Shown here one piece after another: positions 1 to 25,033 of a stretch of 25,769 nt of DNA. Each line of letters begins with the position of its first letter. The stretch's first letter is position 1. Under the pieces are notes generated by a model. The model was given only the letters and a program-made list of their open reading frames with translations, did not search any database and was not told the origin of the DNA. Position numbers and translations under genes: made by a program. Origin of the DNA: a virus. Lineage: Duplodnaviria > Caudoviricetes. The stretch lies in IMG/VR virus record IMGVR_UViG_3300031472_000006, positions 1 to 25,769 of that record; one strand, written 5' to 3'.

Positions 1-315
1 GTTGGGAGAGTAGGCCGGTCCCGGCGTGCTGACGGTGTCGCCGGAAACGCCATGGTTGGCGCCGCCCATGAATCGGTTGACGCCGTGATCGTCGGGCGCA
101 ATCCACACGTCGCAGCGAAATCGTGGATCCAGGGTTTGGGCAGTGACAACCTCGCCTTTTTGTTGGGTGGCGAGAGTCGAGTTCGTGGCGCTGGCGTTTT
201 GGTGATTGAACTGCATGATGCTGTCGCCGATCCAGGCGACGCGAGCCCCGACCGGGAGCAGGCGCGGAACGACATAGGCCCTGACCCCCGCAAGGCCAGG
301 GTTGAAGACGCTCAC
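1..315 (-). CDS. SGNH/GDSL-family hydrolase (N-terminal part; truncated by window edge), probably virion-associated esterase
   Basis: Not in ORF track. GTG at 315..313 overlaps the TGA of the upstream gene (GTGA). The frame is open to base 1: [38 protein letters not shown]...[16 protein letters not shown] (block I) and NxGxSG (block II) motifs. Confidence 0.8.
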
Positions 316-2687
316 TGGGTGTTGCCGACCACGTACGCGTTGCCGTTGCCGTCGCACAGCACGGACAGAATTGCGCCCCGGCGGGCGGTGGTGAACGACG
401 CGACGGCTTTGTCGGAGACCAAAATCGTTGCCGTGCCGGCGACGATGGTGACTTGGCCGGCCGCCTGCTGCATGACGGAGAACGAGCGGTTGGCGCCGAG
501 GTCGGTGACGGTGACGGTGACCGCAGAGGCGCTGGTGTAGGCGATAAGGCCGCCATCGTCGGTGACGGCAGGAGCGTCCGTCGTGCCGGACACCGTCCGT
601 TTCGGCGGTGACCAAGCGGTGCCGGGCGTACCTGCGGCCCCTTGAGGACCGGTGGGTCCGGCAACAGGAGCGGAGGCGGCGAGGGTTCCGTCAGCGGCGA
701 CCGTGAGGTTTGCGCCGATTTTAACCGCTCCGAGCGCGGTGGTGGTGGCGGGGACGGTGAGGCCCGGCGCGGCGTAGGGTACCCAACCGGGCTGGCCCGT
801 TCCGGTTTCCTTGATGTAGAGCGTGGTTCCGGAACCACCGTCGCGGCGTGCGTAGATTGAACCCGCGGGCGCCGTGATCGCGGGGGCGCCGGTCCCGCTG
901 TAGATACCGGCAATGACGCTCTCCTGAGCGTTCACCCAAGCGATGGCCTGGTTGGCCGCGATCTGCAGAGCGTTTCCAGACGCGATCGTGGCCGTGTCGG
1001 TGCGAATGCCGGTGGTCCAGTTCCCCGTCCCGACCTCGACTGGCGCGTGGGGAAAGTTTGCCGAAAGATTGGTCGTGTCGCCGGTCAGGTAGACCGCGCG
1101 GCCGCCGGGCGCGATGGCATCGCTGCCGACCAGGAAGCCGTTGTAGGTCTTGGGGACGATGCCGAATTTATTAGCGCCGCCATTCTGATTGACGCCCCAG
1201 CCGTAGAGGACGTGGCCGCCGTTGCCAAAATACTGGTAGCCGGCATCGGGGACGAAGTTGAAGCCGGCCGTCCACTGCGCCAGTCCGACCGGACTTGGTT
1301 TCCAGCCGGTCGCGGGGCCGCCGTAGACGACGTTCACTTCGGCGGCCGTCATGCCGTAGGTCGCGTTCGGCGCCTCGGTGAGGTCGGGCGTGCAGGTGAC
1401 GAGACAATGCCCGATCAAGCCTGGTCCGGCTGCGCTGTGCCAATGCGCGAACTCGCCTTTGGCGATATCGGCGAGGCCGGAATCGGCGGCGCTGAGGAAG
1501 GCCTGGTAGCTGTAGATGTCGCCGTAGGCGACGTGGGGACCATTGTTGGTGACGTCGATTTCGTGCGCGATCGCCGTTCCAGTTTGCGAGCCCTGTGACA
1601 CGGTCTTGAGCACGCCGTTGGTTCGCTGCTCGGTCCGCCCGACGTCGAACGGGTTCGCGCCCGCGACCCCGGTGAACTTGACGCCGTCATCGATTTGGAT
1701 GGTGGCGTTCAAGCCGACGATGTTCTGACTGAGCGAGTATGATGCAGTCGGCCGAGTCACGTGCAATTGCACGGGAGCGGCCTTGGCGCTGGCGATCGCC
1801 GCTGCGAAGGCGGGGTAATCGTCGGTGGTCCCGTCACCCTTCGCCCCGAAATCCTTCGGATTGACGATGCGTGCGGCATAATCGGCGATGGTTGTCACGG
1901 CTGTGGCGCTGGAGGGCACGACAGTAGCCTTCGACACGTCCGCGGCGGCAAAGAAGTTCGCCACCGAGATTGCGTGGTCTTTGGCGCCTTGGCTGACGCC
2001 CACGAGGTCGGTCGCGGCGACGGACGGAATGAGGGATGCAGCGGTGATGCTTGTTCCGGTTCCGGCCGGACCAGTTGCGCCGGCTGGGCCGACTAAGCCG
2101 GTGAGGCCGGTTGATCCGGTCGGACCAGCAGCGCCGCTTGGGCCAACTAAGCCGGCTGGGCCGACAGCTCCGGTGAGCCCAATGGGGCCGGAGAGCCCGG
2201 CGGGGCCGGTTAGGCCGGTAGTGCCGGTCGGCCCCACTGGACCGGTGGCTCCGGTCAAGCCTGGTGACCCCCCTGAACCCGTCGTAGCAATGACGCCATT
2301 CGGATCGATCGTGACGTTGGTACCGGCGGTGAACAGGCCGCGAAGCTGGAATAGCGGAAGTTGGCGCGGCTGGCCTCCGCTGCTGATGATGGCTTCGTCC
2401 GTGACCGTCAGGCCAGGAGCTGCGGGAAAGGTCGCGTGGTCGGCGCCGGTTGCGGCGAGGTTACCGGATACCAGAGCCAGGCCTAGGCCAATTGCGACCG
2501 GTTCAGGGCCACCTGGACCAAGCGAGACGCGGCCAAGAAGCGTGTTGGGCGCCGTGGTAATGATCGGTTGCGTGGCGGCGAGAAGAGTGCCGATCGCGGC
2601 GCCGCGGGCGGTGCCCGCTTGGCTGATCGGCAAGACGTCGTTGGGGTTGATCTGGATGGCGATTGGAAGCTGGTTGATTGTCGGCAT
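312..2687 (-). CDS. Tail fibre/tailspike with collagen-like stalk and pectate-lyase-3-like entry motif (791 aa)
   Basis: AAGGA RBS; about 24 Gly-X-Y triplets; [20 protein letters not shown] motif typical of tailspike beta-helix N-termini; fibre-type motif [24 protein letters not shown]; position after baseplate. Confidence 0.85.
2056..2270 (-). repeat. Collagen-like (Gly-X-Y)n coding repeat
   Basis: [69 protein letters not shown]; 9-nt periodicity in DNA. Confidence 0.9.
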
Positions 2688-2726
2688 AGTCGTCCTTGGG
2701 AACGTTCGATCGTCGGAAAAGAAGGG

Positions 2727-5052
2727 TCAGGCGACGGCGAACCAGCCGTGCCAATCGACTCCGACGCGCTTGATCCAGAGCGTGGCGCCGAGGCCACCGT
2801 CGAGGTTGCGGTAGTCGGAACCGGGGGGGCGCCGTCACCACTCCGTCGGGCGAGCCATGACCGGTCGTGGCGAGGTAGCCGGCCGGATTGCTATCGCTGG
2901 CGAACCGTATCCGCCCGTTGGCGGCCGGCCTAAAGGTGAGGTCGCCATTGCCGGAGGTGTGCACGACGAGGCTGCCGTCCCCCGGCGGCGCGAAATAGTC
3001 GGCGAGCGGGACCGAGTCGGCGCGCCATGCTCCGAAGATCGCGGTGAAGGATATCGTCGCGTTGGCGGGCACGGTGACGTCGCCCAGCGTCCAGTTCTCC
3101 TGAAACGGCGACGACCCGAGGCGATTGAAGACGGTTGCGGCGTTGCAGGCGAGCCGGACCTGGCGACCCTCGATAAGGGGCAGTCCGACGCTGGCGGTCG
3201 CGGCAGCGCCTTGCCCGTCGCCGGTGATCACGACGCTGGCGCCATTCGCGTAGCCGGCGCCCGGGTTGGTGATCGCAATGCCGAGAAGCCGCCCTTGCGC
3301 GACGTAAGCGACCGCAGTCGCCCCCGACCCGGCGCCGGTAATCTGGACTGTAGCGTAACTGTAGCCTGACCCACCGGCGGTTGGCTTGATGAAGCCGATC
3401 GTCCCCCACGTCTGGACTTGCCGTTGAGTCTGGATCGATTGGACGCCGCCCGGTGCGGCGGAGATCATGGCGTTGTCGGCGAAGTCAGGCAGTTGGACGG
3501 TTTGGCGGCCGTTGACGAGCGCCGGGTTGCAGATGATCCGGGCGCCGCCGCAGTGGTTTTGTTCGATGATCGCGCTGTCGGTATGCGCCCACAGGCACTG
3601 GGATTGATTGGCAGGCGCCACCACGTTGAAAACGTTGCGTGCTAAAGTAACGGATTGAGGCGCATCGATGAGATAAATGCCTCCACCGGAGGTGGTTGAG
3701 AAGCCGATGGTATTATCGGTGATCGCGAGATTGATGGTTGCAATGCCGAAGTTGTTGCCGGCTCCGTCGGTCTCGATGTTGTAGGCGGTAATGGCCCAAA
3801 CGTTGTCTTGCAGGTAGTTCGAGGCGACGGACATGCCTGAGCTGCCGCCCGGATTTATCCCGACGCCGGCGCCTGTAACGTGATTGGCGTCAATGAGGCA
3901 ATTGATGCTGCCCCCTGCGTCGATCCCGAAGTAGTTCGGGCCGGTGATGATGTTTCCGGTAAGCCGGCTCTGGGCGCAGTTGAATAGGATGCCAGCGCCG
4001 GTGGTGGCGCTGCCGTTATTGCTCAGAAGATTGCCGCTGACTGAAATCGATCGTCCGGAGACAGCGATGCCGTAGGAAAAATTCTCGTGGCAGACGTTGT
4101 CGGCGATCAGCACGCCGATCGCATCGGGGTTGGCGTTACCCCAGGTCGGGGGCTGCCGGTTGGTCGCGTTGTAGTTGCCGATACTGATGCCGCGCCCGTT
4201 CATCCAGCACTGGTTGGCAGACACGGTGGCGAGGCGGACGGCCTGGGCGAAAGTCGGATCGTTGAAGTCGGCGCAGATGCCATAGGCGGCGTTGTGGTGG
4301 GCGCGGCAACCGTGGACTCGGGCCGCGTCGATGGCCTGCAACCATATGCCGTGGCCTGCATTGGCAGTCGCCTCACAGTTCTCGACGACGTGGCGGGAGA
4401 TGGCTGGGTCAGAGGCGAGGAGGGTCAGGCCGTTGCCGAGCGCTGGGTCCTGAGCGTTGGCGAACACGCAGTCACGGAAGGTTGCGGCGAGGCATGAGGC
4501 GGCGACGAGGACGCCCCAGGTAGGCGCGTGGATGGCGGCGTTGGCGTCGAATGCGACCCCCTCGGCACAAAAGCTCGGTCCCTGAATACTGATCCACGCG
4601 CCGCCGTTCGATTGTCCGATGCGTCGCAGGATCGTCTGGCCCGGGGTTCCAAGCAGGGTGGCGGGAGCGGCGATGGTCCACTGGCCGGTGATTGCGTAGG
4701 TACGGGGGCCGAGGCGGACTGGGTGGCCGCTGGCGCATGCGGCCGTGAGGGCTGCGGTGTCGTCGGTGACGCCATCGCCGATTGCACCGTATGACTCTGG
4801 TAGAACCGTGGCTGCAAACAGGATCGCAAGCGGTACTGGCGTCGCGCCGCCGGAGGGAGTTGCAAGCGCACCAGACGCGTTGAGCCCGGCGAGGTTCGGG
4901 GTTGTGGAAGCGAGCGCTGCCGCGATGGAGGGCTGGAGGCCGGAGAGCAACTGGGCGTGCGTGAGCTTGCGGAGGGTGCCTGCGTGGCTGGCGGAGATTT
5001 CGTCGGTGTCGGAGGCGGCCGAGACTGGGCATAGTTGATCGACGGTTGGCAT
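2727..5052 (-). CDS. Right-handed beta-helix tailspike / polysaccharide depolymerase-like protein; one extra base in the G7 tract 2823..2829 frameshifts the 3' end
   Basis: PESYGAIGDGVTDDTAAL motif followed by Asn/Gly-rich parallel beta-helix repeats. Removing one base from G7 gives ...APPGSDYRNLDGGLGATLWIKRVGVDWHGWFAVA* (774 aa, stop 2727..2729). As written the ORF runs to 2503 with an Arg-rich tail overlapping the next gene. Confidence 0.85.
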
Positions 5053-5055: not shown

Positions 5056-5541
5056 TTAGGGTCCGGCCAAGATCGGGCTACCGTTCTGGTCGGTGAGGAT
5101 GATGCCATCGCTGGTCGTGAGGCTGCCGGCGACCGAGACAGGAAGGGCGAGTTGCGCGACAGGCAGAAGAACGGACCGAGCGAGGCTTCGGCCTGCTTGG
5201 GTGCCAATTGAGAGGCTGACGACGTAGGTTACCCCTATTTGCCCGCCGCCGAGCCAGAGAACGGCGCGGGTGCCGTCGGCGGAGGTCGCGGTCAGGGCGA
5301 GGTCGCCGGGGTTGGACGGAGTGATGGCGATGTCGAGGGTTGCGATTGCGTCGCCGTCATTGCCGATCAGTGCGGGTGCGATATCGAACTGGTAGTCAAG
5401 GAGGTCGGCGGGATCCTTCAGGGGCCACGAGGGAATCACGGCGGGCGCCGGAGTGGCGCCGCGGGGAACGGGAACGAATGCATCGAGCGTCACGGTGCGG
5501 GCCGCGCTCGGCTTCCAGATGTGTGTGGCGGGAGTCGGCAT
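5056..5541 (-). CDS. Putative fibre-tail adaptor protein (161 aa)
   Basis: WPLKDPADLLDYQFD (KDPxxxLDY) motif seen in small phage fibre adaptors; beta-rich; lies between the fibre and tailspike genes; AGGA RBS. Confidence 0.6.
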   Translation of the reverse strand: MPTPATHIWKPSAARTVTLDAFVPVPRGATPAPAVIPSWPLKDPADLLDYQFDIAPALIGNDGDAIATLDIAITPSNPGDLALTATSADGTRAVLWLGGGQIGVTYVVSLSIGTQAGRSLARSVLLPVAQLALPVSVAGSLTTSDGIILTDQNGSPILAGP

Positions 5542-5562: not shown

Positions 5563-6807
5563 TTAGAATTCGATGATGGTGACGCCACCTGCGCCAGCGC
5601 CGCCGTTGCCGGCCCCGCCATAGGCGCCGCCGCCGCCGGACCCGAAGGCTTGCCCGTTTTGCTGGATGGTGTTGCCGTTGGCTGCAGCGCGACCGCCACC
5701 CCCGAAGTAGGACGCGCCACCATTCCCCGCGAGGACGAGGTTGCCGGAGTTGCCGTCACTGCCGTAGCCGCCGAGAACATTGAGCGATCCGCCGGTGCCG
5801 GCACCCGGTGCGCCGCCGCCGGAGTAGGCCGCGGCACTGGTCCCGCCGGCGCCTCCGGACGCGCTGAACAGGCCGCCGAAATTGCTGGTTCCTCCAGCGC
5901 CGGCGGGCGTGCCAGCAGCGGTTCCGCCCGTGCCGCCCTGTCCGATGTAGGCGTAGAGCGCCTGACCCGGGTAGATGCTCAGGATCGAAGCGGTATAACC
6001 TCCGGCGCCGCCGCCGGCACCCCCGTATCCTGTACTTCCAGAACCCCCTCCGCCACCAGCGCCACAAAGGGCGACCTTGATGAGGCTGACGTTGTTGGGG
6101 GCTGTCCAGGTGCTCGATGCGGTCAGGACGACCTGACGCGAGAAACCAGGCGCCAGGGCAGATAGCTTGAAAGGAATGAAGGGAGCGTTAGGCATTTGGG
6201 CGATGGCGGCTGTGGCAAGCTGCGTCTGGCCGTAGGGCACGGTTACGACATAAAGGCCGACCCATCCTTGATCGACCGGAGGCGTTGCCTGCGTGCCGGC
6301 ATTGGCCGGGGCGCCGGGCTTGACCTGAAGCTGCACTCGCTGCACGCGCTGGGTGTTCTGCGCGGCGCCGGAGTTGGACTGGCCGCTGAATGGCTGGAGC
6401 GGGTTGGCGGCGTTGTAATAGGGCAGAACGATGGGGGACGCATCGGCTTCGAGGAGACTGGCTTGGATGAGATAGGCGATTGACTGTCCCGATACGGCGG
6501 GGGCGGTCAGGGTGAACGATACTGGCCCGGTGTTGACGCCCATCTTCAGCAAGGGATCGGAGGTGTCGGCTGGAAGGGAGCCGAATGGGACGGGATCGAT
6601 GGTTCCAGGAGCGGTGATGCTGCCGGGGCCGATTTGGACGGTGAGGCTGGCCGGACTGGTGGGGGTGCATGCCAAGCCGTCGACGACGGGGGACGCGCCC
6701 AGGGTCGCCTGGATGAGGTATCCGAGAGCCACCATGGTATTCCGCTGAAGCGATAGAAGGTCGGTGTCGAGCGGAATGCTGCCGGGATAGACGATTTGGC
6801 GATCCAC
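5563..6807 (-). CDS. Baseplate-proximal tail fibre protein with glycine-rich C-terminal domain (414 aa)
   Basis: GTG start with AGGAGA RBS; follows the J/I-like wedge genes; C-terminal TWTAPNNVSLIKVALCGAGGGGG...GAGGVTIIEF Gly-rich fibre domain. Confidence 0.8.
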   Translation of the reverse strand: MDRQIVYPGSIPLDTDLLSLQRNTMVALGYLIQATLGASPVVDGLACTPTSPASLTVQIGPGSITAPGTIDPVPFGSLPADTSDPLLKMGVNTGPVSFTLTAPAVSGQSIAYLIQASLLEADASPIVLPYYNAANPLQPFSGQSNSGAAQNTQRVQRVQLQVKPGAPANAGTQATPPVDQGWVGLYVVTVPYGQTQLATAAIAQMPNAPFIPFKLSALAPGFSRQVVLTASSTWTAPNNVSLIKVALCGAGGGGGSGSTGYGGAGGGAGGYTASILSIYPGQALYAYIGQGGTGGTAAGTPAGAGGTSNFGGLFSASGGAGGTSAAAYSGGGAPGAGTGGSLNVLGGYGSDGNSGNLVLAGNGGASYFGGGGRAAANGNTIQQNGQAFGSGGGGAYGGAGNGGAGAGGVTIIEF

Positions 6808-6860: not shown

Positions 6861-6993
6861 CTAGTCTCCCGATTCCGAAGTTCGTCGCATTGAGTTGCGG
6901 CCGGGCTCGGGACACTAGCTCTTTGTTTTCAGTGGCCTGCTGATCCGCTGCGTCCGCCGCGAAGAACGGCGAACTTCGGAGGCAGGACACTAG
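6861..6993. mobile_element. MITE-like element with 27-bp imperfect terminal inverted repeats bounded by CTAG
   Basis: 6861..6887 ctagtctcccgattccgaagttcgtcg vs reverse complement of 6967..6993 ctagtgtcctgcctccgaagttcgccg (22/27 identical); extra internal end copy cgggacactag at 6908..6918; no transposase. Confidence 0.65.
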
Positions 6994-7631
6994 TTGGTGA
7001 TCCGGGTCCAAGCGATGGCGGCGGTCGGAAGGACGGATGTGATCGCAGTCATGATGTCGGCGTCGGTCACTTGACCTTCGACCATGATTAGGTTCGCCCG
7101 AGCGAGCGGCCCCGGCGTGCCGTAGCCGGCGATGGTGGCAATGCCGGAGGTGTGTGGGCGGTAGGCGGTGACGAAGCACTGGAAGGGCAGGGCGAGGCTG
7201 CCCCAACCGCCGGCAGCGCCGTATGCGAGGCTTGGCGAATTGTATGCGCCGGTATCCGCGGGCAAGGCGGGCTCGAAGATGACCGGGATGCGGCCGGTTA
7301 GGTCGGTCAGCATCGCGACGACGGCGCTGCGGGTTGTCCGGTCGCGAAGCAGCTCCCGGCTCAGTCGGTCGCGAAAGGCCGGATCGGATTCGAGGATGCG
7401 CCGTGACAGCCGAGCGCCGAAGAAGTCGATGCCGAAGCCGTCGAGAAAACTGTCGGTTGCAGTGGCAAGGCGCGCTTGCGTGCGGGTTGTTGCGAGCAGG
7501 GCGCAAAGATCCGACCAAGTGGTGGCCAGGCCGTTCAGCACTGCGTCAAGGGTCGGTGTGCTATCGGGAAACCATCGGCTGGGAAAGACCGCTTTTAGGC
7601 GCGCGACGATGTCGGGTGGGTCGCCAGTCAT
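6990..7631 (-). CDS. Baseplate wedge subunit (P2 gpI / Mu gp48 positional equivalent, 213 aa)
   Basis: Directly after baseplate J; RLATATDSFLDGFGIDFFG...ESDPAFRDRL motif typical of wedge proteins. Confidence 0.75.
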   Translation of the reverse strand: MTGDPPDIVARLKAVFPSRWFPDSTPTLDAVLNGLATTWSDLCALLATTRTQARLATATDSFLDGFGIDFFGARLSRRILESDPAFRDRLSRELLRDRTTRSAVVAMLTDLTGRIPVIFEPALPADTGAYNSPSLAYGAAGGWGSLALPFQCFVTAYRPHTSGIATIAGYGTPGPLARANLIMVEGQVTDADIMTAITSVLPTAAIAWTRITN

Positions 7632-7632
7632 C

Positions 7633-8745: not shown

Positions 8746-8757
8746 GGGTTCGGTCCG

Positions 8758-9123
8758 CTAGGGAATGGTCAACGAGAGGGTCTGCGTGGTGCCCGCCTGG
8801 GCGTCGGCATAGCGGAGGTGCACGTAGAGAGAGCCGGTCAGCGCGGCGGTGACGTCGATGATCGGTTCTGGCGTCCTGGCGACGCCGGCTTCCTTGAAAA
8901 TCTGGCCGCGGATCGTGGCACGGATGGTATCGGACGCCCCAGGCAGCCCGACGAAACGGGACAGCCCGGCGCCGTAGTCGAGCGACCAGATATCATCGCC
9001 AGGGTTGGTGATGAGGCGGCGGAGGACACGTTGCTGGGTCAGCGTCACGCCGTCCACGAGGGCGAGATCGCCGGTTGGCGACAGGGTGAGGTCGCTGCCC
9101 CAAAGATGGGCAAGATCGGGCAT
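8758..9123 (-). CDS. Baseplate gp25/gpW-like sheath initiator (121 aa)
   Basis: DLTLSPTGDLALVDG...QQRVLRRLITNPGD..W..DYGAGL pattern; between spike and J. Confidence 0.8.
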   Translation of the reverse strand: MPDLAHLWGSDLTLSPTGDLALVDGVTLTQQRVLRRLITNPGDDIWSLDYGAGLSRFVGLPGASDTIRATIRGQIFKEAGVARTPEPIIDVTAALTGSLYVHLRYADAQAGTTQTLSLTIP

Positions 9124-9650: not shown

Positions 9651-9660
9651 GAGGATATGC

Positions 9661-16866: not shown

Positions 16867-17501
16867 CAGGTGGCGGCCTGCTTGGCGGTGAGGCGCCAGC
16901 CGAGGTCGGTGAGTTCGGCGGAGGCGATGATATGGGTGCGGCCGAGGTCGTCCTGGATGAGGTCGGCGGGTCGGAGCGTGGCGGGCGCGGTGGGCAGGAG
17001 AATGGACCACCAGGGCAGGCGCGAGTCGCCGGGCAGGTCGCCGGCGGACCCGCCGCCGCTGGCCAGGATCGAAGCCAGCCAGGCGGTGAGGAGGGGCAGC
17101 GCGGTGGCGAGGGTGGTGCCGCCGTAGGTGTTGATGCCGAGGGCGCCGGGGGCCGCCGGGCGGGAGATGGTGACGGTGCGGTTGGTCTGGACGCAAAGGA
17201 TAGGCAGCAATGATTGCTGGGCGGCGATGAAGAAGGTGGCGTTCGGCCCGACGAGATAGTCGCCGGGCCGGGTGTAGGCGCTGTCGAGGATGGCGAACCA
17301 GGTCGCGCGGGCGTAGCCAGACGGGCGCTGGAAGCGGGGGTCTTCGGCGTTGAAGGCGGCGGAGAGACGAAGGTAGCGGTTGCTGGCGGCGAGAGGGGTG
17401 GACGGGCCGGAGGGACGGTGGGCGTCGTAGGGCAGGCCTATGTGACGCGCTGCGGCCCCGAGCCCGCGGGAGATGCGATCCTGGAGGTATTCGGCTCGCA
17501 T
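16866..17501 (-). CDS. Putative head closure / head-tail connector (211 aa)
   Basis: Position after the adaptor; operon-like codon usage; coupled to the next gene. Confidence 0.65.
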   Translation of the reverse strand: MRAEYLQDRISRGLGAAARHIGLPYDAHRPSGPSTPLAASNRYLRLSAAFNAEDPRFQRPSGYARATWFAILDSAYTRPGDYLVGPNATFFIAAQQSLLPILCVQTNRTVTISRPAAPGALGINTYGGTTLATALPLLTAWLASILASGGGSAGDLPGDSRLPWWSILLPTAPATLRPADLIQDDLGRTHIIASAELTDLGWRLTAKQAAT

Positions 17502-17507
17502 GATGGG

Positions 17508-17885
17508 TTAAACGATAAGCGGGATGGAGGCGGTGGAGGCTAGACCGGGGCCGGGCGGGATACCGAGGAAGGCGCAGAGGCGGCGGCCCTAGGATTGCTC
17601 GAGGCGCTGGCGATCGAGGATTTCGGTAGGGTTGCGGGTCCAGACGGCGGCGGTCGAGGTGTCAAGGTTGCCGGCGGCGGCGGGGATGGCGAGCTCGAAG
17701 CCGCGCAGGGTGGCGAGGTGCTGGCGCAGCACGGCTTCCTCGGCGGGGCTTAGATTGTTCAGCCGGTATTCGAGAGCGCCGTATGCCTGGTAGAAGCGCC
17801 ATCCCATGTTGCCGGCGTTGCCGGCGCCGTAGGCGGGGTAGCCGCAGAAGCGGCGGGCGTCGGTCTTGTCGGGGTCGGTGATCAT
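17508..17885 (-). pseudogene. Head-tail adaptor-like gene (125 codons) interrupted by in-frame TAG at 17589..17591
   Basis: AGGAG RBS; after RLEQS* the frame continues GRRLCAFLGIPPGPGLASTASIPLIV* to a TAA 6 nt before the next start; TAG is one substitution from TGG. Confidence 0.75.
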
Positions 17886-17904: not shown

Positions 17905-19227
17905 TCAGCCTACGTGTTCGACCATGACGGCGCGCTTGTAGGCGGCGTTGGTGGCGGTGGGGATGACCGTCGGGTTGGTGGTGGTGTCGCTGGGGGCGCA
18001 GAAGCCGCCGATCCAATACCAGGACTGGGCGATGATCTGCTGCAGGCGGTCGATCGGCTCGCGGGTGACCATGGCGATGCCGTCCACGATGCTGACGATG
18101 CTGTCCTTGGGCGCGACGTCCTCGGCGCCCATGCCGGCGAAGTCGCCTTCGATGAGGGCGCCTTTGCCGCAGATGATGGGGCGGCGGATGACTGCGCCGG
18201 GCAGCGTGGGGTGGGGCTGGACGTAGGCTTCCGTGGTGGGGATAAAGCGGAGGCCGAGGAAGTCGTTGACCATGCCCTGTTTGAAGACCTGGTTGGCGGA
18301 GGTGGCGCCCTGGAACAAGCGCTGGAAGTCCTGGTCGGCGAACAGCTGACGCGCGCTGACGGGGTCGAGGTAGCAGTTGTAGACGCCGTCGATCTCGGGG
18401 ACGGCGTTCAGGCGCAGCTTGGCGACGGCATCGAGCAGGTTGGCCATCTGGAGCGTGCTGCCGACGGCGAGCGCGGCGGTCGTGAGCGCACCGTTGGGAC
18501 GGATGACGACGGAGGCGTTGGCGGCCTGGACCGCGTTGCCCGCAGTGGCGTCGGCGACGGTGACGCTGGCGTTGAACGTGAGCGTGCCGGAAACGCCGCC
18601 GGGTGCTGTGGAAACGTTGCTGACGTCGGGAGCGGCGCCGATCAGGGTATAGGAGTTAGCGCCGACCGTAACGGTGAGGGATGTGGTGCCGCCAACCGGG
18701 GACTGCACACCGTTGACGAAGACGGTCTGGAAACCGCGGATGTCGTCCACGGCGATGGCGGGTCCGGTTGCGGCAAGAGTGATGCGGACGCGGGTGTTGC
18801 CGCCGAAATAGGGGGCGAACAGGGCGTTGCGGGCGAGCTCGTCGAGGGAGCGGGCGGCCTGCTCGCCGTTGGTGTAAGCGTTCTGCAGAAACTGGCCCAC
18901 GATTCCGACGCGCGAGGTGACCATGTTGAGGTCGGTGGTGGCGGCGTAATGATTGATGGAGATGGTGTACTGCTCGACGCCCCAGGTGGTGGGGGTGAGG
19001 CCATTATCGAGGTTGGTGTTGGTGTTAGGGGCGAGCGGGGTAGTGACAGAGGGCTTCAGGCCGGCGCGGGTTTTGGTGAGCGTCTCGCCGATGCCGACGG
19101 AGAAGTCCTCGCGGTCGGCAACGGCCCGGTAGCCGAGGCGGGAGGCGAGGGCCTGCTGGAACTCGCGCTCGAGGAAACCCTGCTGGATGATGGGCTGGAG
19201 CGCGAGGGGGAAGTTCTGGATGCCCAT
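17905..19227 (-). CDS. Major capsid protein (440 aa)
   Basis: AAGGA RBS; after the scaffold; GIGETLTKTRAGL, YNCYLDP and EPIDRLQQIIAQSW motifs reminiscent of N4-gp56/P22-coat-type capsids. Confidence 0.85.
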   Translation of the reverse strand: MGIQNFPLALQPIIQQGFLEREFQQALASRLGYRAVADREDFSVGIGETLTKTRAGLKPSVTTPLAPNTNTNLDNGLTPTTWGVEQYTISINHYAATTDLNMVTSRVGIVGQFLQNAYTNGEQAARSLDELARNALFAPYFGGNTRVRITLAATGPAIAVDDIRGFQTVFVNGVQSPVGGTTSLTVTVGANSYTLIGAAPDVSNVSTAPGGVSGTLTFNASVTVADATAGNAVQAANASVVIRPNGALTTAALAVGSTLQMANLLDAVAKLRLNAVPEIDGVYNCYLDPVSARQLFADQDFQRLFQGATSANQVFKQGMVNDFLGLRFIPTTEAYVQPHPTLPGAVIRRPIICGKGALIEGDFAGMGAEDVAPKDSIVSIVDGIAMVTREPIDRLQQIIAQSWYWIGGFCAPSDTTTNPTVIPTATNAAYKRAVMVEHVG

Positions 19228-19389: not shown

Positions 19390-19761
19390 TTAGCGGCCTC
19401 GCCGCAGGCGCTCCCGGGCGAGTTGCCATTCGCGGTAGGTCATGTCCTTGGCCATGCGAGGCTTTGCTGGCTCGGGGGTCGGGGGTGGGGCGGGGTGGCT
19501 GCTGTTCGGCTTGGTGAACAGCCACGGCTTGTCGCGCTTGAGCTGGTCCATCAGGCCGGCGGCGCCGGCGATGTTGCCGTCGACGTCGAGCTTGAGGGCG
19601 GACTGATCGAGGAGCTTGAGGCCGTCGAGGTCGATGATGCCGGCGTGGATGGCGTGCGCCTTCATTTCGGCGTGGATCAAGCGGCTGTTGGCCACGGCGA
19701 GCTGGTGCTGGAGGGCCTCGGTGGTGGGCGCGTCGGGGGACGATTCGGGAATGTCGGTCAT
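19390..19761 (-). CDS. Capsid scaffolding protein (123 aa)
   Basis: Between portal and capsid; helical N-terminus, LKRDKPWLF motif, Pro linker, C-terminal MTYREWQLAR helix; ATGA overlap with portal. Confidence 0.8.
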   Translation of the reverse strand: MTDIPESSPDAPTTEALQHQLAVANSRLIHAEMKAHAIHAGIIDLDGLKLLDQSALKLDVDGNIAGAAGLMDQLKRDKPWLFTKPNSSHPAPPPTPEPAKPRMAKDMTYREWQLARERLRRGR

Positions 19762-21188
19762 GTGCCTTCGCGGGGTTGGCTGGACAGGCCGGCGTCGGCG
19801 CGGATGCGGGCGAGTTCGGCGGGGATATCGGCGATGTCGTAGGTGCTGGCGAGCGCCTTGAGGGCGGTTTCGCGGCTGAGCTGGCCGGCGCCGGTGAGGG
19901 TGGTCAGGGTCTGTGCGTCGCGCTGACGGTCTTCGGAGGTGGCGGGATACCAGTGCGGCCAGATCAGCGAGATCGGGGCGTTGGGGTCGAGGGCGGGAGT
20001 GTCCTGGCCGGCGATGCGAAGGCGGTAGCGGGTGCTGGCGCGCAGGACCATGCGGGCGAGGGAGAGCAAGGCACCCTCGCCGTAGGAGGTGCGCAGGTTG
20101 TCGGCGAGCCAGAGCAGGCCCTGGTTCATGAGTTCGAGGGCACGGCCGGAGGTGGCGGCGGACAGGCGGGAGGCGTCGGCGCGGTTGCCGTGGACGCTTT
20201 CGAGGGCGAATTCACGCAGGGTGCGGACGTATTCGATGACGGCGGCGGCGGCGGTTCCGCCGATTTCGAGCAGCTTGGCGTCACCTTTTTCGGAGACGAT
20301 GAGGGCATTGCCGGCGCCCTTGGCGATCTCACTGTCGAGTCCGGCGGGCTCCTTGATGAGGAGGGTTGGGTCGGAGCTGTATTTGAGGCCGCGGCCGGCT
20401 TGGGAGAGCTGGTAGTCGATCTCGATGGAGGTCTCGATGGCGGCGCGGAAGGTGGATGCGCCGTCGGCGGGGTCGAGGGTCCAGGACGGGCCGGGGAGGT
20501 TGCGGACCCAGACGAGGGGAGCGAAGCCGAGGCCGTGCTGGACGGTGCGGGCCGGGTCGACGGTGAGAGGTCCGGGGGAGCCGACGGGTTGGGGTTCAAA
20601 CCAGGTTTCGGCAGATAAGTCCCAGCGGCGGGTGAACCAGTAGGCGGTGGCAGTGTCGGTGATGTCATAGCCGGCGGCGATCAGGGCGTTGCCGGAGATT
20701 TTGTAGCGCTCGGTGATGGAGGCGAGGGTATCGGGGGCGTCGGGTTGCCAGGCGGGGGTGAGGTTCACCGTGTCGAGACAGGCGAGGAAGACGCGTCCGC
20801 GGAGGACACGGAGGAGGATGGAGACGGAGCCGATTGCGCCGCGGAGGGCGGCTTCGGTCATGACCTCGTTGAGATGGGTTTCCCGGGCGAGGGCGGCGAG
20901 GGTGTCGCGGACGGGGTGATCGGGGGAGTCGATGGCGGGAAAGTGGCCTTCGGAGAACAGGAGGGCGACGCTGTCTTCGGTGACGATGCGGGCGAGGGCG
21001 TAGCGGACCGAGGGGCGGCGGAGGCGGAGCGGGATGTATTCGCCGGAGGGGGTCCGCTCGTCGTGGAATTCATGCGGGAGGGCGTCGTAGAGGGTGCCGT
21101 CCAGGACCCGGCGGAGAATGTCGAGCCGCCGGGCGCGAAGCGGCATGTCGGGGTCGGCGGGTATCAGGTCGCAGATGGATTGGAACAT
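19758..21188 (-). CDS. Portal protein (SPP1 gp6-like, 476 aa)
   Basis: After TerL; YALARIVTEDSVALLF, HGLGFAPLVW, SGRALEL and LSRETAL motifs; size. Confidence 0.88.
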   Translation of the reverse strand: MFQSICDLIPADPDMPLRARRLDILRRVLDGTLYDALPHEFHDERTPSGEYIPLRLRRPSVRYALARIVTEDSVALLFSEGHFPAIDSPDHPVRDTLAALARETHLNEVMTEAALRGAIGSVSILLRVLRGRVFLACLDTVNLTPAWQPDAPDTLASITERYKISGNALIAAGYDITDTATAYWFTRRWDLSAETWFEPQPVGSPGPLTVDPARTVQHGLGFAPLVWVRNLPGPSWTLDPADGASTFRAAIETSIEIDYQLSQAGRGLKYSSDPTLLIKEPAGLDSEIAKGAGNALIVSEKGDAKLLEIGGTAAAAVIEYVRTLREFALESVHGNRADASRLSAATSGRALELMNQGLLWLADNLRTSYGEGALLSLARMVLRASTRYRLRIAGQDTPALDPNAPISLIWPHWYPATSEDRQRDAQTLTTLTGAGQLSRETALKALASTYDIADIPAELARIRADAGLSSQPREGT

Positions 21189-21205: not shown

Positions 21206-22615
21206 CTATCGCTGAAGAAGGGGCAGATTGGCGCGGCGGGTGGGAGCGGCGGAGTCGGTGAGCATGGCGAAGGCGCGGCTGAGAGCGTCGACTTGGTCGT
21301 CCTTGGCGCCGTGGGGGAAGTCCTGCAGTTCCTCGAGAAAGGCGCGGTTCCAGGGGGCGCGGCGGAGGGCGAGGTTGCCGGCGTTGGCCTGGCTGGCGGC
21401 GGGCATGGCGCGGGTTTCCTTGGCGCCGGTTTCGGGGGAGGAGAAAACGCGGTGGCCGGCGAGGCGGGCGGTGAGGTAGCGGATTTGGGCGCGACCGGCT
21501 TGGCCGGGATCCTGGGGTAATCCGATTGGGATGAGAGGACCGTCGGCAGCTGCGGCGTCGAGGATGGCCTGCTCGACCTCGTGCGGGCCGCCGCGGAGGC
21601 GGATGACGTCGAGGACACAGAATGCGCCGTTGGCGTCGCGGGTGAGTTTGACGCCGACGGTGTAGTCGGGGTCGCGCCCGGAAGTTTCGGCGGTGGCGGC
21701 GAGGTCCCAGGCGCGAACGGTCGGGCCGATGCCGGGCTCGGTGAGGATCGGGATTTTAGCCGGGTGGAACAAGCGGCCGGTACGAAGGGTCGGGGATTGC
21801 TGGAACAGGGCGGCAAACGCGCGTTCGCCGACGATGGCGCGCTTGCGGGCGAGGGCGTCGGCGGTTTCCCACTCGGGCCAGAGAGGTTCGCCGATGGCGC
21901 GGCCGAGGGCGTCACCGGGTTCGGCGAGGGCGGGGAGGCGAAGGGTGCGCCAGGCGTCGGGGCCGTTTTGGATACGGCCGCCGAGGTCGTCGGGATGCCA
22001 GCGGGTCATGATAAGGATGATGCGGCCGCCGGGTTTTAGGCGGGTGACGAGATCGGAGCGGTACCAGGACCAGAGGTGGTCGCGTGCGGCGGGGCTGTCG
22101 GCCTCGGCCTGGGATTTGAATGGGTCGTCGATGAGAATGAGGTCGGCTCGGCGGCCGGTGATTGGGCCCCGGACTCCGGTTGCGAAATATTCAGCTTTGG
22201 TGGAGGTGGCGAAGTTGTGGGCGGCGCGGCTGCTTGGATCGAGCGCGTAGCCGAGGCGGGCGGCGTGCTGGTCGATGAGGGCGCGGACGCCGCGGCCGAA
22301 GTGGCGGGCGAGGGATGCGGTGTGGGACGCCGCGATGATGGACGAGCCGGGATGGCGGGCGAGCCACCAGGGCGGGAAGAGGAGGGAGGCGTAGGTGGAC
22401 TTTGCCGAACCTGGGGGAAGCAGGAGCATGAGTCGGTCGGTTTGTCCTCCGGCGAGGGCGTCGAGTTCGGCGAGGAGGAGGCGATGGTGAGGCGCTGGGG
22501 CTTGGCCACGGTCGGCGAGAGCCAGGGTTGCCCAGGCGAGGAGGTCGTTACGGATTGTGCGCCTGAGTGCGCGCTCCGTCGTGAGGTCGGAGGGCGTCCA
22601 GGTCTTGATCGGCAA
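21206..22615 (-). CDS. terL: Terminase large subunit; start uncertain (TTG 22615 preferred, ORF open to ATG 22717)
   Basis: Walker A PPGSAKST, ITGRRAD, Walker B ILIDDPFK, coupling motif MTRWHPDDL, nuclease RAWDLAAT and DDQVDA. Confidence 0.95.
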   Translation of the reverse strand: MPIKTWTPSDLTTERALRRTIRNDLLAWATLALADRGQAPAPHHRLLLAELDALAGGQTDRLMLLLPPGSAKSTYASLLFPPWWLARHPGSSIIAASHTASLARHFGRGVRALIDQHAARLGYALDPSSRAAHNFATSTKAEYFATGVRGPITGRRADLILIDDPFKSQAEADSPAARDHLWSWYRSDLVTRLKPGGRIILIMTRWHPDDLGGRIQNGPDAWRTLRLPALAEPGDALGRAIGEPLWPEWETADALARKRAIVGERAFAALFQQSPTLRTGRLFHPAKIPILTEPGIGPTVRAWDLAATAETSGRDPDYTVGVKLTRDANGAFCVLDVIRLRGGPHEVEQAILDAAAADGPLIPIGLPQDPGQAGRAQIRYLTARLAGHRVFSSPETGAKETRAMPAASQANAGNLALRRAPWNRAFLEELQDFPHGAKDDQVDALSRAFAMLTDSAAPTRRANLPLLQR

Positions 22616-22763
22616 GGGTTGCGAGGTCCGTGGAGGGGCGTGCGGCGAGGACGCGGGGGTGAAGGTAGGGTGCGGCGACGCGGGCGAGAGCGGCTGCGCC
22701 GTCGTAATCGCCGTCATCCCACTTGCGCTGCATAGCGGCGAGGAGGATGGCGAGGTGGATCAT
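22548..22763 (-). CDS. Putative minimal terminase small subunit (71 aa)
   Basis: First gene of the operon, overlapping terL; AAPYLHPR motif and DLATLADQDLDAL tail typical of TerS-position proteins; in-frame TAA 5 codons upstream of ATG. Confidence 0.6.
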   Translation of the reverse strand: MIHLAILLAAMQRKWDDGDYDGAAALARVAAPYLHPRVLAARPSTDLATLADQDLDALRPHDGARTQAHNP

Positions 22764-22798
22764 GTGAGGTGGTGTTTACCTCGGAGATCGTAATGAAG

Positions 22799-22845
22799 AA
22801 GGTAGGGTAGGTTGGGGCGTTTGGGTAAGGGTTATTTTCCTACAT
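22799..22845 (-). promoter_or_regulatory. Candidate promoter of the structural operon
   Basis: AT-rich patch GTAGGAAAATAACCC, then TTACCC-N18-TACCTT about 35 nt upstream of the first ATG; weak consensus. Confidence 0.3.
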
Positions 22846-22875: not shown

Positions 22876-23298
22876 GGGCCGTTATGGCTGGAGTCGGATC
22901 GCATCGTCGTGGAGGGGATCTGCACCGTCTTGTCCGACACGGAGTTGTGGCATTTTGAGCTTCCCGGGAATGTTCGGCAACTTGTGATCAGAAGCCAGAC
23001 GACGATGCCGAAGCCGGGTGGGGCGGAGGGTCGGAATTTGGGCGTTGCGATCGGGGCGGTGACGATCGATCGCGAGCCATGCCCGCTGCGTTCGGTTGGG
23101 ACAGAAGACAGCGGTTGGTATCCGATCGAGTCAGCTCAGCACGGGACATGACGCTGGATGGACGGGGCGGCGACGCTTCCCGTGACTGGGCGAGAGGTCA
23201 GCATCCAGTTGGCTCATCGCGCGACGTCACATTACACGAACGGCGTGACGACTGACCCTGCAGGACTAGACAGCGGCCGAGGAAAGGGCGTTTCCTAG
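22876..23298 (+). pseudogene. Remnant resembling the C-terminal domain of alphaproteobacterial Hint-domain / glycosyltransferase-associated proteins
   Basis: FELPGNVRQLVIRS...RNLGVAIGAV...GWYPIE...GT*RWMDGAATLP; the motif GW..E....RWxDGxAxL continues through an in-frame TGA at 23149..23151; no convincing start. Confidence 0.5.
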
Positions 23299-23326
23299 TC
23301 TCAACTGGGGCGTTCGGGCAAGAATT

Positions 23327-23713
23327 ATGGTCCGCAGACTGAGGAGGTTTGTGGCAACTGTAGCCACGGCGACAACACTGGCGGCCTGTGCCGGGGGAGC
23401 TGTCGGCCGTGAGTTCGGGGGAACCCCAGCCGTGGTAGCGGGTGCGTGCCCGGAACTCATGAGCCACGGGCATACGGTACGCAGCGTGCTGACGATACGA
23501 AACGATTTGGTGGTGTTCACGCCGGCCGATGGGGTCGTTCAGCTCAGTGGCCACCTGGACAAGACGGGACGGGTGACTGCCAGCCGCAGTTCGACCGGCG
23601 CCGATCACCACCCGTTCGAAATGGTATTCGAAGGAACACTCGCCAACGACTCCGTGAGCGGCACTTTTGCGACGCCGCGTTGCCGGGCGTCGGTTAAAAT
23701 GGACGCTGTATAG
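23327..23713 (+). CDS. Putative lipoprotein (128 aa)
   Basis: Basic N-terminus, hydrophobic stretch, lipobox LAA-C; small beta-rich domain with two further Cys. Confidence 0.7.
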   Translation: MVRRLRRFVATVATATTLAACAGGAVGREFGGTPAVVAGACPELMSHGHTVRSVLTIRNDLVVFTPADGVVQLSGHLDKTGRVTASRSSTGADHHPFEMVFEGTLANDSVSGTFATPRCRASVKMDAV

Positions 23714-24278
23714 GGCGCCTCGCGACGGCGTCCCAGAGCTTGGCGGCCTGCTGATCGGTCCTGAGTGCGGCGACGATCTGATCGATTGCGCTCGCATGCC
23801 AGCGCTGGATCGCCTTGTGGTCGGCGGCGACGAGGCGGGCAAGACGCCGCCAGCTGAATAAATGGCGTCCGGTCAGAGGACTCACGAGGCAGCGGCAGCC
23901 GACAATCCGGCGCAAGACGATCTTATCGCCGGGAATAAGTGGTATCCATGAGAAGGCTTGATCCATGCGGGTGATGCGATGGGCGGGCGGAACGGGTGGC
24001 ACTGGCCGACCCTCACCGGGTGCGGCAAAGGCCTCCAGCGCGTCGCGGACGAAGTCCTGGCGGGTCTGCCGCAGTTTCGTCGTGTAGCCTGATTGTGGCA
24101 AGGAGAGCAGGGTATGACCGGCTTCTTCCAGTCGATAAATGACGGTTTCGGCGTCGTACAGCTCTTCAGACCTAGCTGGCTGTATCGAGAGGCGCGACGG
24201 ACGACGGCCTTGAGGAAGGCTACGGGGAGACGCGTCCGGATGATCATTGAGGCTCAGCGTGACTCGTGGCTCGGTCAT
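23694..24278 (-). CDS. DUF6362-like protein; candidate late-gene activator / antiterminator (194 aa)
   Basis: VIYRLEEAGHTLLSLP, PPAHRITRMDQAFSW and C-terminal HTH-like SWRRLARLVAADHKAIQRWH; sits upstream of terminase like Q-type genes. Confidence 0.7.
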   Translation of the reverse strand: MTEPRVTLSLNDHPDASPRSLPQGRRPSRLSIQPARSEELYDAETVIYRLEEAGHTLLSLPQSGYTTKLRQTRQDFVRDALEAFAAPGEGRPVPPVPPAHRITRMDQAFSWIPLIPGDKIVLRRIVGCRCLVSPLTGRHLFSWRRLARLVAADHKAIQRWHASAIDQIVAALRTDQQAAKLWDAVARRPIQRPF

Positions 24279-24300: not shown

Positions 24301-24597
24301 TCACAGGAACACTGGGTAGGGGTAGGGCTCGCCGTCGAGAATCGTGCCGGCGGTGATGGCTGCCCATGTCAGGGGATGACCGGGGGGCATGCAGGTGCGA
24401 TCTGCGCGGCATGGGGGGGAGGCTGGGCGGGAGGCGGTCAACAGGGTGGGCGGAATGCCGAGCCGCCGCGCGCGCTCGATGACGGCGCTGCGGCCGGCTC
24501 GGAGCTGGGCCGCAATCGCGTGCCAAGTTACCCCGTGGTCGCGCATCTGACGAAGCTGCTGATCGGCGTGAGCCGACCATTGAATTTTGAGGGCCAT
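24301..24597 (-). CDS. GcrA-N-like helix-turn-helix protein (98 aa), Cro-position regulator
   Basis: AGGAG RBS; WSAHADQQLRQMRDHGVTWHAIAAQLRAGRSAVIERARRLG resembles the GcrA N-terminal HTH. Confidence 0.7.
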   Translation of the reverse strand: MALKIQWSAHADQQLRQMRDHGVTWHAIAAQLRAGRSAVIERARRLGIPPTLLTASRPASPPCRADRTCMPPGHPLTWAAITAGTILDGEPYPYPVFL

Positions 24598-24614: not shown

Positions 24615-24643
24615 TAGTTAGTATGGCTAACATAGTTCGTCAA
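24615..24643 (-). promoter_or_regulatory. Candidate leftward promoter with palindromic operator GTTAG-N5-CTAAC
   Basis: TTGACG (-35) at 24643..24638; perfect inverted repeat 24617..24631 in the AT-rich gap between divergent regulators; -10 is imperfect. Confidence 0.55.
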
Positions 24644-24691
24644 ATGTTCTTATGTGGTGCAGGTGGGGCTGGAGGTTGGTGTGAGGACGGA

Positions 24692-25033
24692 ATGGTGAAC
24701 GAGACGGTCGGACATCGGATTGGCGCGCTCAGGCGCGCGGCGGGGCTATCGCAGGCGGATTTGGCGGAGCGGACCGGAGTTTCGCGAAGTGCGGTGGCAC
24801 AGTGGGAGACCGATCGTGCCGGGCAGGAACGGGACAACCTGGCCCGGATCGCGGCGGCCTTGGATGTTTCGGTCGAGGTTCTCTTGCAAGGCGACCAGGC
24901 GCGCGGGTTGCTGGTGACGATGGGAGACGAGCTGGCACTGGTCCGGCTGTATCGGGGCTGCAGCGTGCGCGACCGGGGAAAGTTGCTGCGATTGGCCCGG
25001 CAGATGGCAACGACTTCGGTGGATGGGGCTTAG
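24692..25033 (+). CDS. XRE-family HTH repressor (113 aa)
   Basis: True start ATG 24692 with GAGGA RBS; RIGALRRAAGLSQADLAERTGVSRSAVAQWE; C-terminal DELALVRLYR helix; no S24 peptidase domain. Confidence 0.9.
   Translation: MVNETVGHRIGALRRAAGLSQADLAERTGVSRSAVAQWETDRAGQERDNLARIAAALDVSVEVLLQGDQARGLLVTMGDELALVRLYRGCSVRDRGKLLRLARQMATTSVDGA

Follow-up and report, generated by a model that had tools for sequence, protein, structure and literature searches.

Gene transfer agents (GTAs) are recognised by phage-derived proteins, a genome endogenised in the host and often split over several loci, mostly vertical inheritance, the packaging of mostly random host DNA, a head too small for the agent's own genome and the delivery of DNA (PMC9662315). 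In the published descriptions that we compared, GTA tails are non-contractile, short or absent, and the discovery of further GTA families in genome sequences is still an open problem. RcGTA and CcGTA are stand-alone head–tail clusters of vertical descent with accessory genes at other loci, controlled by a repressor and a two-gene activator operon, the sigma-like antiterminator of which binds between the -35 and -10 elements (RogA, GafYZ; PMC11150451). Their small terminase (TerS) has no N-terminal domain, the loss of which has been proposed as a GTA hallmark (PMC6854486). The Bartonella GTA is an independent alphaproteobacterial agent with tailless or non-contractile particles (PMC9662315). 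R-type tailocins and eCIS have contractile tails without capsid, portal or terminase. PBSX of Bacillus subtilis, which is induced by DNA damage, joins a domesticated head to a contractile tail and is reported to kill without injecting DNA. It packs evenly spread 13.4-kb fragments of the host chromosome, and tailocin activity has been reported for it (PMC12946183).

Our study concerns a window of 25,769 bases, the entire IMG/VR record IMGVR_UViG_3300031472_000006 (a whole 25.8-kb contig). Family profile searches revealed three regulators at the right end and, behind them, genes for terminase, portal, capsid, sheath, baseplate and fibres, with the head, packaging and tail families on the minus strand. 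The earlier note had described a full head, DNA-packaging and contractile-tail operon, and the TerL, portal, scaffold, capsid, sheath and baseplate families were all matched. From right to left, the structural and packaging genes are:

22548..22763, minus strand: small terminase TerS, 71 aa, without a basic N-terminal segment; in-frame stop just upstream of the start
21206..22717, minus strand: large terminase TerL, Terminase_6N/6C, with ATPase and nuclease domains (phrog_38, E 2e-95)
19758..21188, minus strand: portal, SPP1 gp6-like (PF05133; phrog_145)
19390..19761, minus strand: scaffold, 123 aa (PF06810)
17905..19227, minus strand: major capsid protein, 440 aa (phrog_1357)
15875..17885, minus strand: four head–tail connector genes, assigned from their position as adaptor, stopper, terminator-like and small ORF
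14296..15870, minus strand: contractile tail sheath (phrog_23, E 2.8e-45; Pfam sheath matches weak)
13838..14266, minus strand: likely tail tube, next after the sheath; 35 % to the phiKX1 gene following its sheath
13247..13752, minus strand: from its position, likely a tail assembly chaperone, followed by a small partner gene
12641..13027, minus strand: tail completion or neck protein (phrog_5, E 4.7e-7)
11572..12612, minus strand: short tape-measure-like protein, 346 aa, 23 % proline
10700..11571, minus strand: pair of small tail/baseplate genes whose position makes them likely X-like and tube-initiator-like; 36–50 % to the matching phiKX1 genes
6990..10713, minus strand: baseplate wedge, J, W, spike V and hub (PF04865 for J; PF04717, phrog_6, phrog_120, phrog_52)
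5563..6807, minus strand: glycine-rich tail fibre (PF21722; phrog_863)
5056..5541, minus strand: fibre–tail adaptor of the Gp77 family (PF23148, E 7.8e-22)
2503..5052, minus strand: beta-helix tail spike
312..2687, minus strand: collagen-repeat tail fibre with a pectate-lyase-like domain
1..315, minus strand: gene truncated at the contig end, likely one more fibre or spike gene; no match in family searches, but a GDS motif hints at an SGNH-type domain

The TerL reading frame is uninterrupted, although its start codon is uncertain. In this contig a frameshift at a C run near 2823 breaks the beta-helix spike gene, which runs X1 and X2 show interrupted by a repeat at 3851. No integrase, recombinase or replication family was found among the 40 ORFs scanned in the window, and neither a tRNA nor a lysis gene was found there; the contig stops inside the gene beyond the last fibre. 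The sole metagenome match to a left-end pattern was contig L272, the same 25,769 bases, so the left edge was not extendable. Three runs showed even depth between TerL and EcsC, contig depth not being a measure of copy number. A generic promoter scan of the window and a search for a terminator on the coding strand returned nothing, and the C-rich coding strand is not a family-wide trait. A 'remnant' at 22909..23151 had zero matches in family and profile searches, and its candidate identity as a Hint-domain protein found no match.

The head and tail genes derive from phiKX1-like myoviruses. Komagataeibacter phages phiKX1 and phiKX2, for which myovirus-like particles are reported (PMC8566455), and related prophages of acetic acid bacteria share the gene order, with 24–53 % identity from portal to first fibre. 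However, the 53-kb phiKX1 has an integrase and early genes, its terminase is a different one and its tape measure is 742 aa long. The miniature tape measure claimed for our locus is real by this comparison, and both of its ends, compared by eye, resemble the phiKX1 protein at the same position. The capsid is 62 % identical to that of Ralstonia phage Raharianne and 53 % to those of phiKX1/2; neither it nor the DUF6362 regulator described below had a sequence match among solved structures. Acetobacter phiAO1 has the closest TerL among cultured phage records (50 %) and a short TerS homologue; it lacks an integrase, was sequenced from a DNase-treated particle fraction, has host genes inside its record and was called a degenerate prophage by its authors. 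Its head and tail module differ from those of our element, however, and its TerL groups outside the element clade. The element's TerL and portal split from prophage homologues at support 0.997 and 0.994.

A capsid at least 70 % identical was found in 110 of 301 Acetobacteraceae genomes, as a single match in 103. In the closest genus 18 of 20 genomes carry it, 13 at 82–86 % identity and five at 78 %; in Acidocella it occurs at 65 % or more in 27 of 42, and class-wide in three of 351 genomes. The family is common in Acetobacteraceae of soil, peat, lichen and acid habitats, as judged by record titles, and its cultured carriers include Acidocella facilis ATCC 35904 and Acidisphaera sp. L21. Four examined loci of the 78 % capsid type carry a phage-type portal and another terminase, which indicates that the element swaps genes with phages.

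The cluster is inherited vertically within the Acetobacteraceae and is under purifying selection. Both were checks set by the earlier note, and both agreed with its expectation. Across 28 genomes, the capsid tree shared 20 of 25 splits with that of rpoB, the single marker gene used as host reference (shuffled mean 0.19; Mantel r 0.79), and no conflict was seen at support 0.95. Values of dN/dS were 0.024–0.127 for the capsid (12 pairs) and 0.026–0.171 for TerL (9 pairs), mostly <0.25, and low also in variant pairs; in four of seven pairs, synonymous distance was either saturated or two- to eight-fold above that of rpoB. Head and packaging genes show the same constraint as tail genes, the capsid is the best conserved protein, and the five core genes are unbroken in 34 of 39 full loci. 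The integrase just outside the window that would have spoken for a phage was likewise not seen: in relatives, the flanks sampled (23 upstream, 12 downstream and eight regulator loci) hold host genes and lack an integrase, and the temperate-prophage module of integrase and replication genes beside late genes was found neither in the window nor in the sampled flanks. Related prophages hold primase, helicase or RecT at the corresponding flanks, and among 80 viral-contig loci replication genes were matched only where TerL was at most 53 % identical. A conserved chromosomal position was upheld in part, with EcsC adjoining the regulators in 15 of 70 loci and other neighbours in other lineages. On this evidence the cluster has almost certainly been domesticated by its host.

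The element has lost the N-terminal segment of TerS, and the minimal TerS noted earlier is genuine: at 71 aa it lacks the basic segment of related prophage proteins. The basic motif, which we assume to bind DNA, was present in none of 40 element loci compared with four of nine other loci. Among the matches listed, it was seen in none of the 50 closest homologues, whereas the 50 most distant included 15 with it. One homologue of full length matches a gene that a phage record annotates as TerS, no longer forms appeared in a search spanning 211–2000 aa, and cultured phage records gave no match to TerS or to DUF6362. The scaffold is mostly 114–141 aa long in the element, compared with 169–206 aa in nine of 13 other loci and 144–177 aa in four, a weak indication of a small head. 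Judged from the truncated TerS, packaging is probably non-specific, so that heads would contain random host DNA.

The regulatory region and its flank comprise the following features:

25064..25640, plus strand: host EcsC-family gene (flank), its 3' end running into a high-copy repeat from about 25641
24695..25033, plus strand: XRE repressor-like protein, transcribed away from the GcrA-like gene and lacking an S24 peptidase domain
24301..24597, minus strand: GcrA-family HTH protein in the Cro position (PF07750)
23694..24278, minus strand: DUF6362 protein with a predicted sigma-4-type HTH
23327..23713, plus strand: lipoprotein-like gene, conserved in the family
23280..23321, minus strand: further copy of the promoter element, lying upstream and lacking the second -10-like box
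22787..22828, minus strand: late-promoter element, TTACCC (-35-like), 18-nt conserved spacer, TACCTT, 6 nt, TACGAT (second -10-like)

The repressor has no S24 domain, in line with the non-autocleaving type proposed earlier; similar GcrA-family genes occur in prophage loci L118, L173 and L174. The late-promoter pattern was found in 86 of 101 element loci and, in operons split by inserted DNA, recurs ahead of the portal or capsid. It fits the description of Q promoters, in which the spacer element is conserved and a -10-like box lies downstream (PMC6606751). Genome-wide, five genomes held three extra sites, all before unrelated genes, and the motif was not found at stand-alone lysins. The predicted DUF6362 fold aligned modestly with phage 21 Q (6jnx_P; Z 6.6, 118 aligned, rmsd 5.4), tied with sigma factors at Z 6–7.2, and a Foldseek search gave no match at E 0.001. 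DUF6362 is a likely Q-like late activator or antiterminator, and its predicted sigma-4-type HTH and the conserved promoter suggest a Q-like switch. The other reading of the promoter is a simple activator site whose actual -10 would be nATGAT. DUF6362 is present in 107 of 110 capsid-bearing genomes and also in 39 genomes without any capsid match, from which we conclude that the cluster is often lost. Regulators and lysin lie apart from the cluster in several genomes, and GH108 was absent from two of five close genomes.

The earlier claim that integrase, replication and recombination genes are lacking holds for the window, but not for part of the family. A single-copy AAA_25 helicase gene occurs in 37 of 301 genomes and adjoins DUF6362 in all 36 checkable, as in G152 (EcsC, XRE, GcrA-like, small ORF, helicase, DUF6362, lipoprotein, TerS, TerL). 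It is absent from five close genomes, including G001, G002, G003 and G012, and the window has no room for it; neither an origin nor a primase domain was seen next to it.

We propose that XRE would repress the divergent GcrA-like/DUF6362 operon. Once repression lifts, DUF6362 would bind the promoter spacer, load on paused RNA polymerase like phage Q and drive the 22-kb late operon. The shortened TerS would initiate headful packaging at no preferred sequence, and particles would be released by a GH108 lysin and a holin-like protein, encoded in the cluster or elsewhere, and would inject random host DNA into other cells. Delivery of packaged DNA, as far as gene content can tell, is somewhat favoured. 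In Acidocella-type loci it is less supported, since the tape measure has no room in six such loci and was not found in three genomes searched. On balance, we consider that this vertically kept head, packaging and tail set of a temperate myovirus likely works as a GTA, of a contractile-tailed kind apparently undescribed so far.

Set against the systems above, the element resembles RcGTA and CcGTA in its stand-alone cluster, descent, dispersed accessory genes, truncated TerS and repressor with two-gene operon, but it has a contractile sheath and P2/Mu-type baseplate, and DUF6362 and the GcrA-like HTH stand where GafYZ would. The g15 gene and non-contractile tail of RcGTA-type agents (Rhodogtaviriformidae) are not its features: PF13547, the TIM-barrel marker of RcGTA g15, was found in one of 301 family genomes and not in the window, and a Caulobacter control was positive. 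Nor does it fit R-type tailocins or eCIS, its head and packaging genes being present and constrained. By description, it may share with the Bartonella GTA the persistence, in part of the family, of a phage-derived replication relic. The earlier comparison with RcGTA, the Caulobacter GTA, R-tailocins and eCIS left out PBSX, the main rival.

The element resembles PBSX by architecture only, with a Gram-negative host, a different phage ancestor and, in contrast to the induction of PBSX by DNA damage, a repressor that has no S24 domain. A PBSX-like killer, in which random host DNA only completes head assembly and the contractile tail kills related strains, is the most serious alternative, though an unlikely one. 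Besides PBSX itself, the PBSX-like particle of Bacillus pumilus looks contractile (PMC8347963), fibres and spikes differ among strains of our family, and sheath, tube and baseplate are retained where the tape measure was lost. The conserved lipoprotein could then give immunity, although it has no named look-alike at 0.9 or more. However, a pure killer has no obvious need for head and packaging genes as constrained as its tail, and the repressor lacks a self-cleaving domain. A role against phages or another host function, whereby particle genes package or mis-assemble incoming phage DNA or lyse a subpopulation to release DNA, is improbable; the four loci with an element-type capsid beside a phage-type portal speak for it, and the full tail, baseplate and fibre set under selection against it.

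An ordinary or decaying prophage, with integrase and replication genes beyond the contig edge or recently lost, is largely refuted and very improbable. The unreadable left edge, the gene order shared with phiKX1, and insertion sequences and breaks at the fibre end would suit it, but the rpoB congruence, the single copy per genome, the host genes flanking either end in relatives, the truncated TerS and the confinement of replication genes, among viral-contig loci, to distant TerL types do not. A Sphagnum metagenome study describes shared phage-like contigs that align with regions of Acetobacteraceae; they carry genes for structure, packaging and lysis, have no excision/replication module, are compared with Raharianne and are read as degraded prophage (PMC12142844). 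By description these contigs probably belong to the present family; GTAs are mentioned only generally, and the passages compared contain no test of descent or selection. Least probable is a variant that would add to the GTA reading rather than replace it, in which the helicase beside DUF6362 could drive run-off replication on induction, amplifying adjacent chromosomal DNA and biasing packaging towards it, as in Bartonella. It does not apply to this window, and the absence of the helicase from the window and close genomes and of an origin or primase domain beside it speaks against it.

In summary, the GTA reading accords with proteins derived from tailed phages (family and phage-homologue matches), with endogenisation on genomic evidence (host flanks, no integrase, dispersed regulators and lysin) and with mostly vertical co-diversification in 28 genomes on one marker gene, alongside a recombined variant. 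Of the myovirus-type GTA-like family first suggested, domestication is thus supported by descent, selection, copy number and flanks, whereas fixed position and absence of replication genes hold only partially. We tentatively suggest, though slightly less readily than the GTA reading itself, an independent contractile-tailed GTA in RcGTA's place in the Acetobacteraceae, convergent in its trimmed TerS, Q-like switch and dispersed accessory genes, the reduction of which is visible stepwise in helicase-keeping lineages and in the Acidocella tail without tape measure. Metagenome catalogues probably list many host loci of this type as 'viral' contigs. The family also offers a test of two questions: whether random packaging can be predicted from a missing TerS N-terminal domain, and whether contractile particles can serve gene transfer or only killing.

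The window spans its entire source record. Pfam and PHROG scans of 40 ORFs bore out the complete head, DNA-packaging and contractile-tail gene set proposed in an earlier note. On the minus strand lie the large terminase (TerL), SPP1-type portal, scaffold, a 440-aa capsid protein, connectors and sheath, and, towards the tail end, baseplate hub, V, W, J, adaptor and three fibre/spike genes. None of these ORFs matched an integrase, recombinase, replication or lysis family. The right end carries three regulators and EcsC, and the divergent XRE gene has no S24 domain, in agreement with the suggested repressor without autocleavage:

23694-24278, minus strand, DUF6362 gene
24301-24597, minus strand, GcrA-family HTH (GcrA-like) gene
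24606-24643, XRE/GcrA-like intergenic stretch conserved in close relatives, a candidate promoter and operator
24695-25033, plus strand, XRE gene
about 25641-25769, high-copy repeat terminating the EcsC gene

In sequencing runs X1 and X2 a copy of this repeat also interrupts the spike gene at 3851. A frameshift near 2823, in a C tract of the spike gene, differs between sequencing runs, being missing from one low-depth contig of X4; it may reflect decay or phase variation. At the left, the last fibre gene is followed by one partial gene cut by the contig end, and an exact pattern from this end matched only contig L272, which is of the same length as the window and adds no sequence beyond the edge.

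Flanking DNA was scanned at related loci of the element, the Acetobacteraceae cluster family to which the window belongs. No integrase was found among the ORFs scanned upstream of TerL (131 of 166 called, 23 loci), downstream of the fibres (100 of 161, 12 loci) or around the regulators (49). These ORFs were host genes (tRNA synthetases, release factor, enolase, rplT, transporters) plus some transposases, with a GH108 lysin downstream of the fibres in 4 of the 12 loci; of five close genomes, three have GH108 and a holin-like neighbour on their own at a separate site, and in the other two GH108 was not found. In control prophages with related terminases, the interval from repressor to terminase contains primase, helicase, RecT or methylase genes, and eleven phage replication or integrase queries of this sort, a narrow test, had no match in loci with an element-type capsid. 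The reported lack of replication and integrase genes holds for the window and, for integrase, the sampled flanks. The lack of replication genes does not extend to the whole family: 37/301 genomes have a single-copy AAA_25 helicase gene next to DUF6362 (position checked by coordinates in 36). This helicase is possibly a relic of run-off replication; in genome G152 it occupies the same EcsC locus as in the window. At L170:5335-6564 (genome G076) and in L274 (G152) the gene is intact and flanked by the GcrA-like gene and DUF6362, and no integrase is close by.

Conservation of chromosomal position was upheld only in part. The order EcsC, XRE, GcrA-like, DUF6362, lipoprotein, TerL was intact in every one of the closest loci that had sufficient upstream DNA (11 loci), whereas flanking neighbours vary by lineage, EcsC adjoins the regulators in 15/70 loci (three of them distant) and in Acidocella facilis it lies at the tail end. 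Beyond the fibre genes, two loci show short stretches (L089:11110-11394 and L091:12188-12430) that match a portion of the capsid protein at 35-37 %. Separately, terminase-portal clusters with a different small terminase (TerS) family directly follow host genes in L182 (G121), G195 and G254, at nearly the same coordinate in these three 2.7-Mb genomes.

Among 8000 candidates scored, 3029 capsid homologues were found at E 1e-10, the best 120 having 80-100 % identity. Of 392 pattern matches in species genomes, 359 encoded a relative; titles of the 80 retained were mostly Acetobacteraceae or unclassified proteobacteria, and the four under other names are probably mis-binned. Capsid matches occurred in 148/301 sampled family genomes, 18/20 genomes of the closest genus, 31/42 Acidocella genomes (27 at ≥65 %) and 3/351 genomes of a class-level sample, counts that represent presence in assemblies of unstated completeness, with absences not positioned on the tree. 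Sorting the 148 by hand gave 110 carriers at ≥70 % capsid identity and 38 lower. A single match was present in 103 of the carriers; the other seven comprised five whose best match was incomplete, the gene likely being split, one with two full copies and one with a second match outside those listed. Several matches per genome were seen in 9 of the 38.

Congruence with the species tree was supported using nine concatenated cluster proteins from 28 genomes picked for long contigs (30 searched, two without rpoB; two of the rpoB sequences were incomplete, and a second copy occurred in one genome). The cluster and rpoB trees had 20/25 splits in common, against a mean of 0.19 and a maximum of 2 with shuffled labels, no conflicting split pairs at support 0.95 and a Mantel r of 0.79; single cluster genes shared 12-16 splits with rpoB. 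In three genome pairs, synonymous distance was close to the rpoB value; in four others it was far above that value or saturated. Element TerL and portal separated from prophage homologues at support 0.997 and 0.994. The exception was four loci (L028, L044, L046 and L050) with a capsid (about 77 %) inside the element clade, a phage-type portal, a different terminase and a basic TerS-like gene; within the closest genus, this variant seems to take the place of the element in some genomes. The five core genes were intact in 34/39 full-length loci and, as anticipated, dN/dS (Nei-Gojobori, 12 close pairs) was well below 1: capsid values spanned 0.024-0.127, TerL values 0.026-0.171 (9 pairs), and no gene exceeded 0.44. 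As the two variant pairs were equally low, selection alone does not discriminate.

The TerS and tape measure also proved to be reduced, as the earlier note had proposed. The 71-aa ORF preceding TerL is conserved, and phrog_15261 was matched by 10/20 members of its family and by full-length homologues, one of which has a 70 % match to a gene that a phage record labels small terminase. At the N-terminus of full-length forms is a basic, Gly-Arg-rich segment, presumed to bind DNA, that was present in 15 of the 50 most distant and none of the 50 closest homologues among the matches listed, and in 0/40 element loci versus 4/9 others (with some redundancy). A G103 prophage has the long form ahead of a TerL with 56 % identity. 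In the window, any N-terminal extension is barred by a stop codon immediately before the start. Short TerS forms also occur in the Acetobacter phage phiAO1 (L152), which has no integrase and has host genes within, and in phiAO1-like loci of small genomes (L180, L183 and L184); phiAO1 may be a second domesticated particle. Most element tape measures are proline-rich proteins of about 300-430 aa; the counterpart in the Komagataeibacter phage phiKX1 has 742 aa. Six Acidocella-type loci (L054, L064, L071, L073, L075 and L076) retain sheath, tube and baseplate with no tape-measure gene, only 172-239 bases being available for it, and none was found in three searched genomes of this type.

Strong DUF6362 orthologues were present in 150/301 genomes, including 107/110 carriers. 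Of these 150, 39 had no capsid match yet keep DUF6362, usually with its GcrA-like neighbour (loci L153-L165), which suggests a second role or recent cluster loss. Several genomes carry the three regulators at sites remote from the cluster. In one prophage DUF6362 follows a replication-type gene, the place of a late regulator. Its predicted structure (pLDDT 80.6) resembles sigma region 4; Foldseek gave no match at E 0.001, and the longest high-ranking alignment, to phage 21 Q, was modest (Z 6.6, 118 residues, rmsd 5.4). Prophage locus L174 (14823-15497) has DUF6456, presumably a GafA domain, then a GcrA-like gene just before the terminase.

A conserved element upstream of TerS had 80 matches in 4.1 Mb versus 11 in shuffled DNA, and 74 of the 80 lay no more than 700 bases from the start of a cluster gene. 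With a matrix trained on element loci, 86/101 of these exceeded the shuffled maximum, versus 9/34 others; the motif was missing in two Acidocella loci (L071 and L073). The consensus is a -35-like TTG(A/C)CC, an 18-base spacer whose core is conserved, TA and, 12 bases further on, nATGAT, whose A and T are kept in 81/82. In Q promoters the binding element sits between -35 and -10, and a pause element resembling a -10 follows it (PMC6606751, in the text available), and GafZ of the Caulobacter GTA binds between -35 and -10 (accessible part of PMC11150451). Alternatively, nATGAT may itself be the actual -10, preceded by an activator site.

Taken together, the window is a real, host-domesticated, myovirus-derived system. 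A GTA-like function is its most likely reading, by a modest preference. The element shows the three genomic features among the six in the GTA definition (available portion of PMC9662315), and the RcGTA marker (PF13547) occurred in 1/301 family genomes. The main rival, a PBSX-like killer particle, is clearly less likely; PBSX packages 13.4-kb host fragments with reported killing without injection (PMC12946183, accessible text), and a PBSX-like particle has a contractile appearance (PMC8347963, likewise), so the general combination of a domesticated head and a contractile tail has a precedent. Among phages, phiKX1 and phiAO1 come closest (PMC8566455, in the part available), and fragments reported as degraded prophage in the available text of PMC12142844 are probably related to the element. 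No paper describing the family as a GTA or naming DUF6362 was found, with subscription journals and bioRxiv supplements outside the scope.
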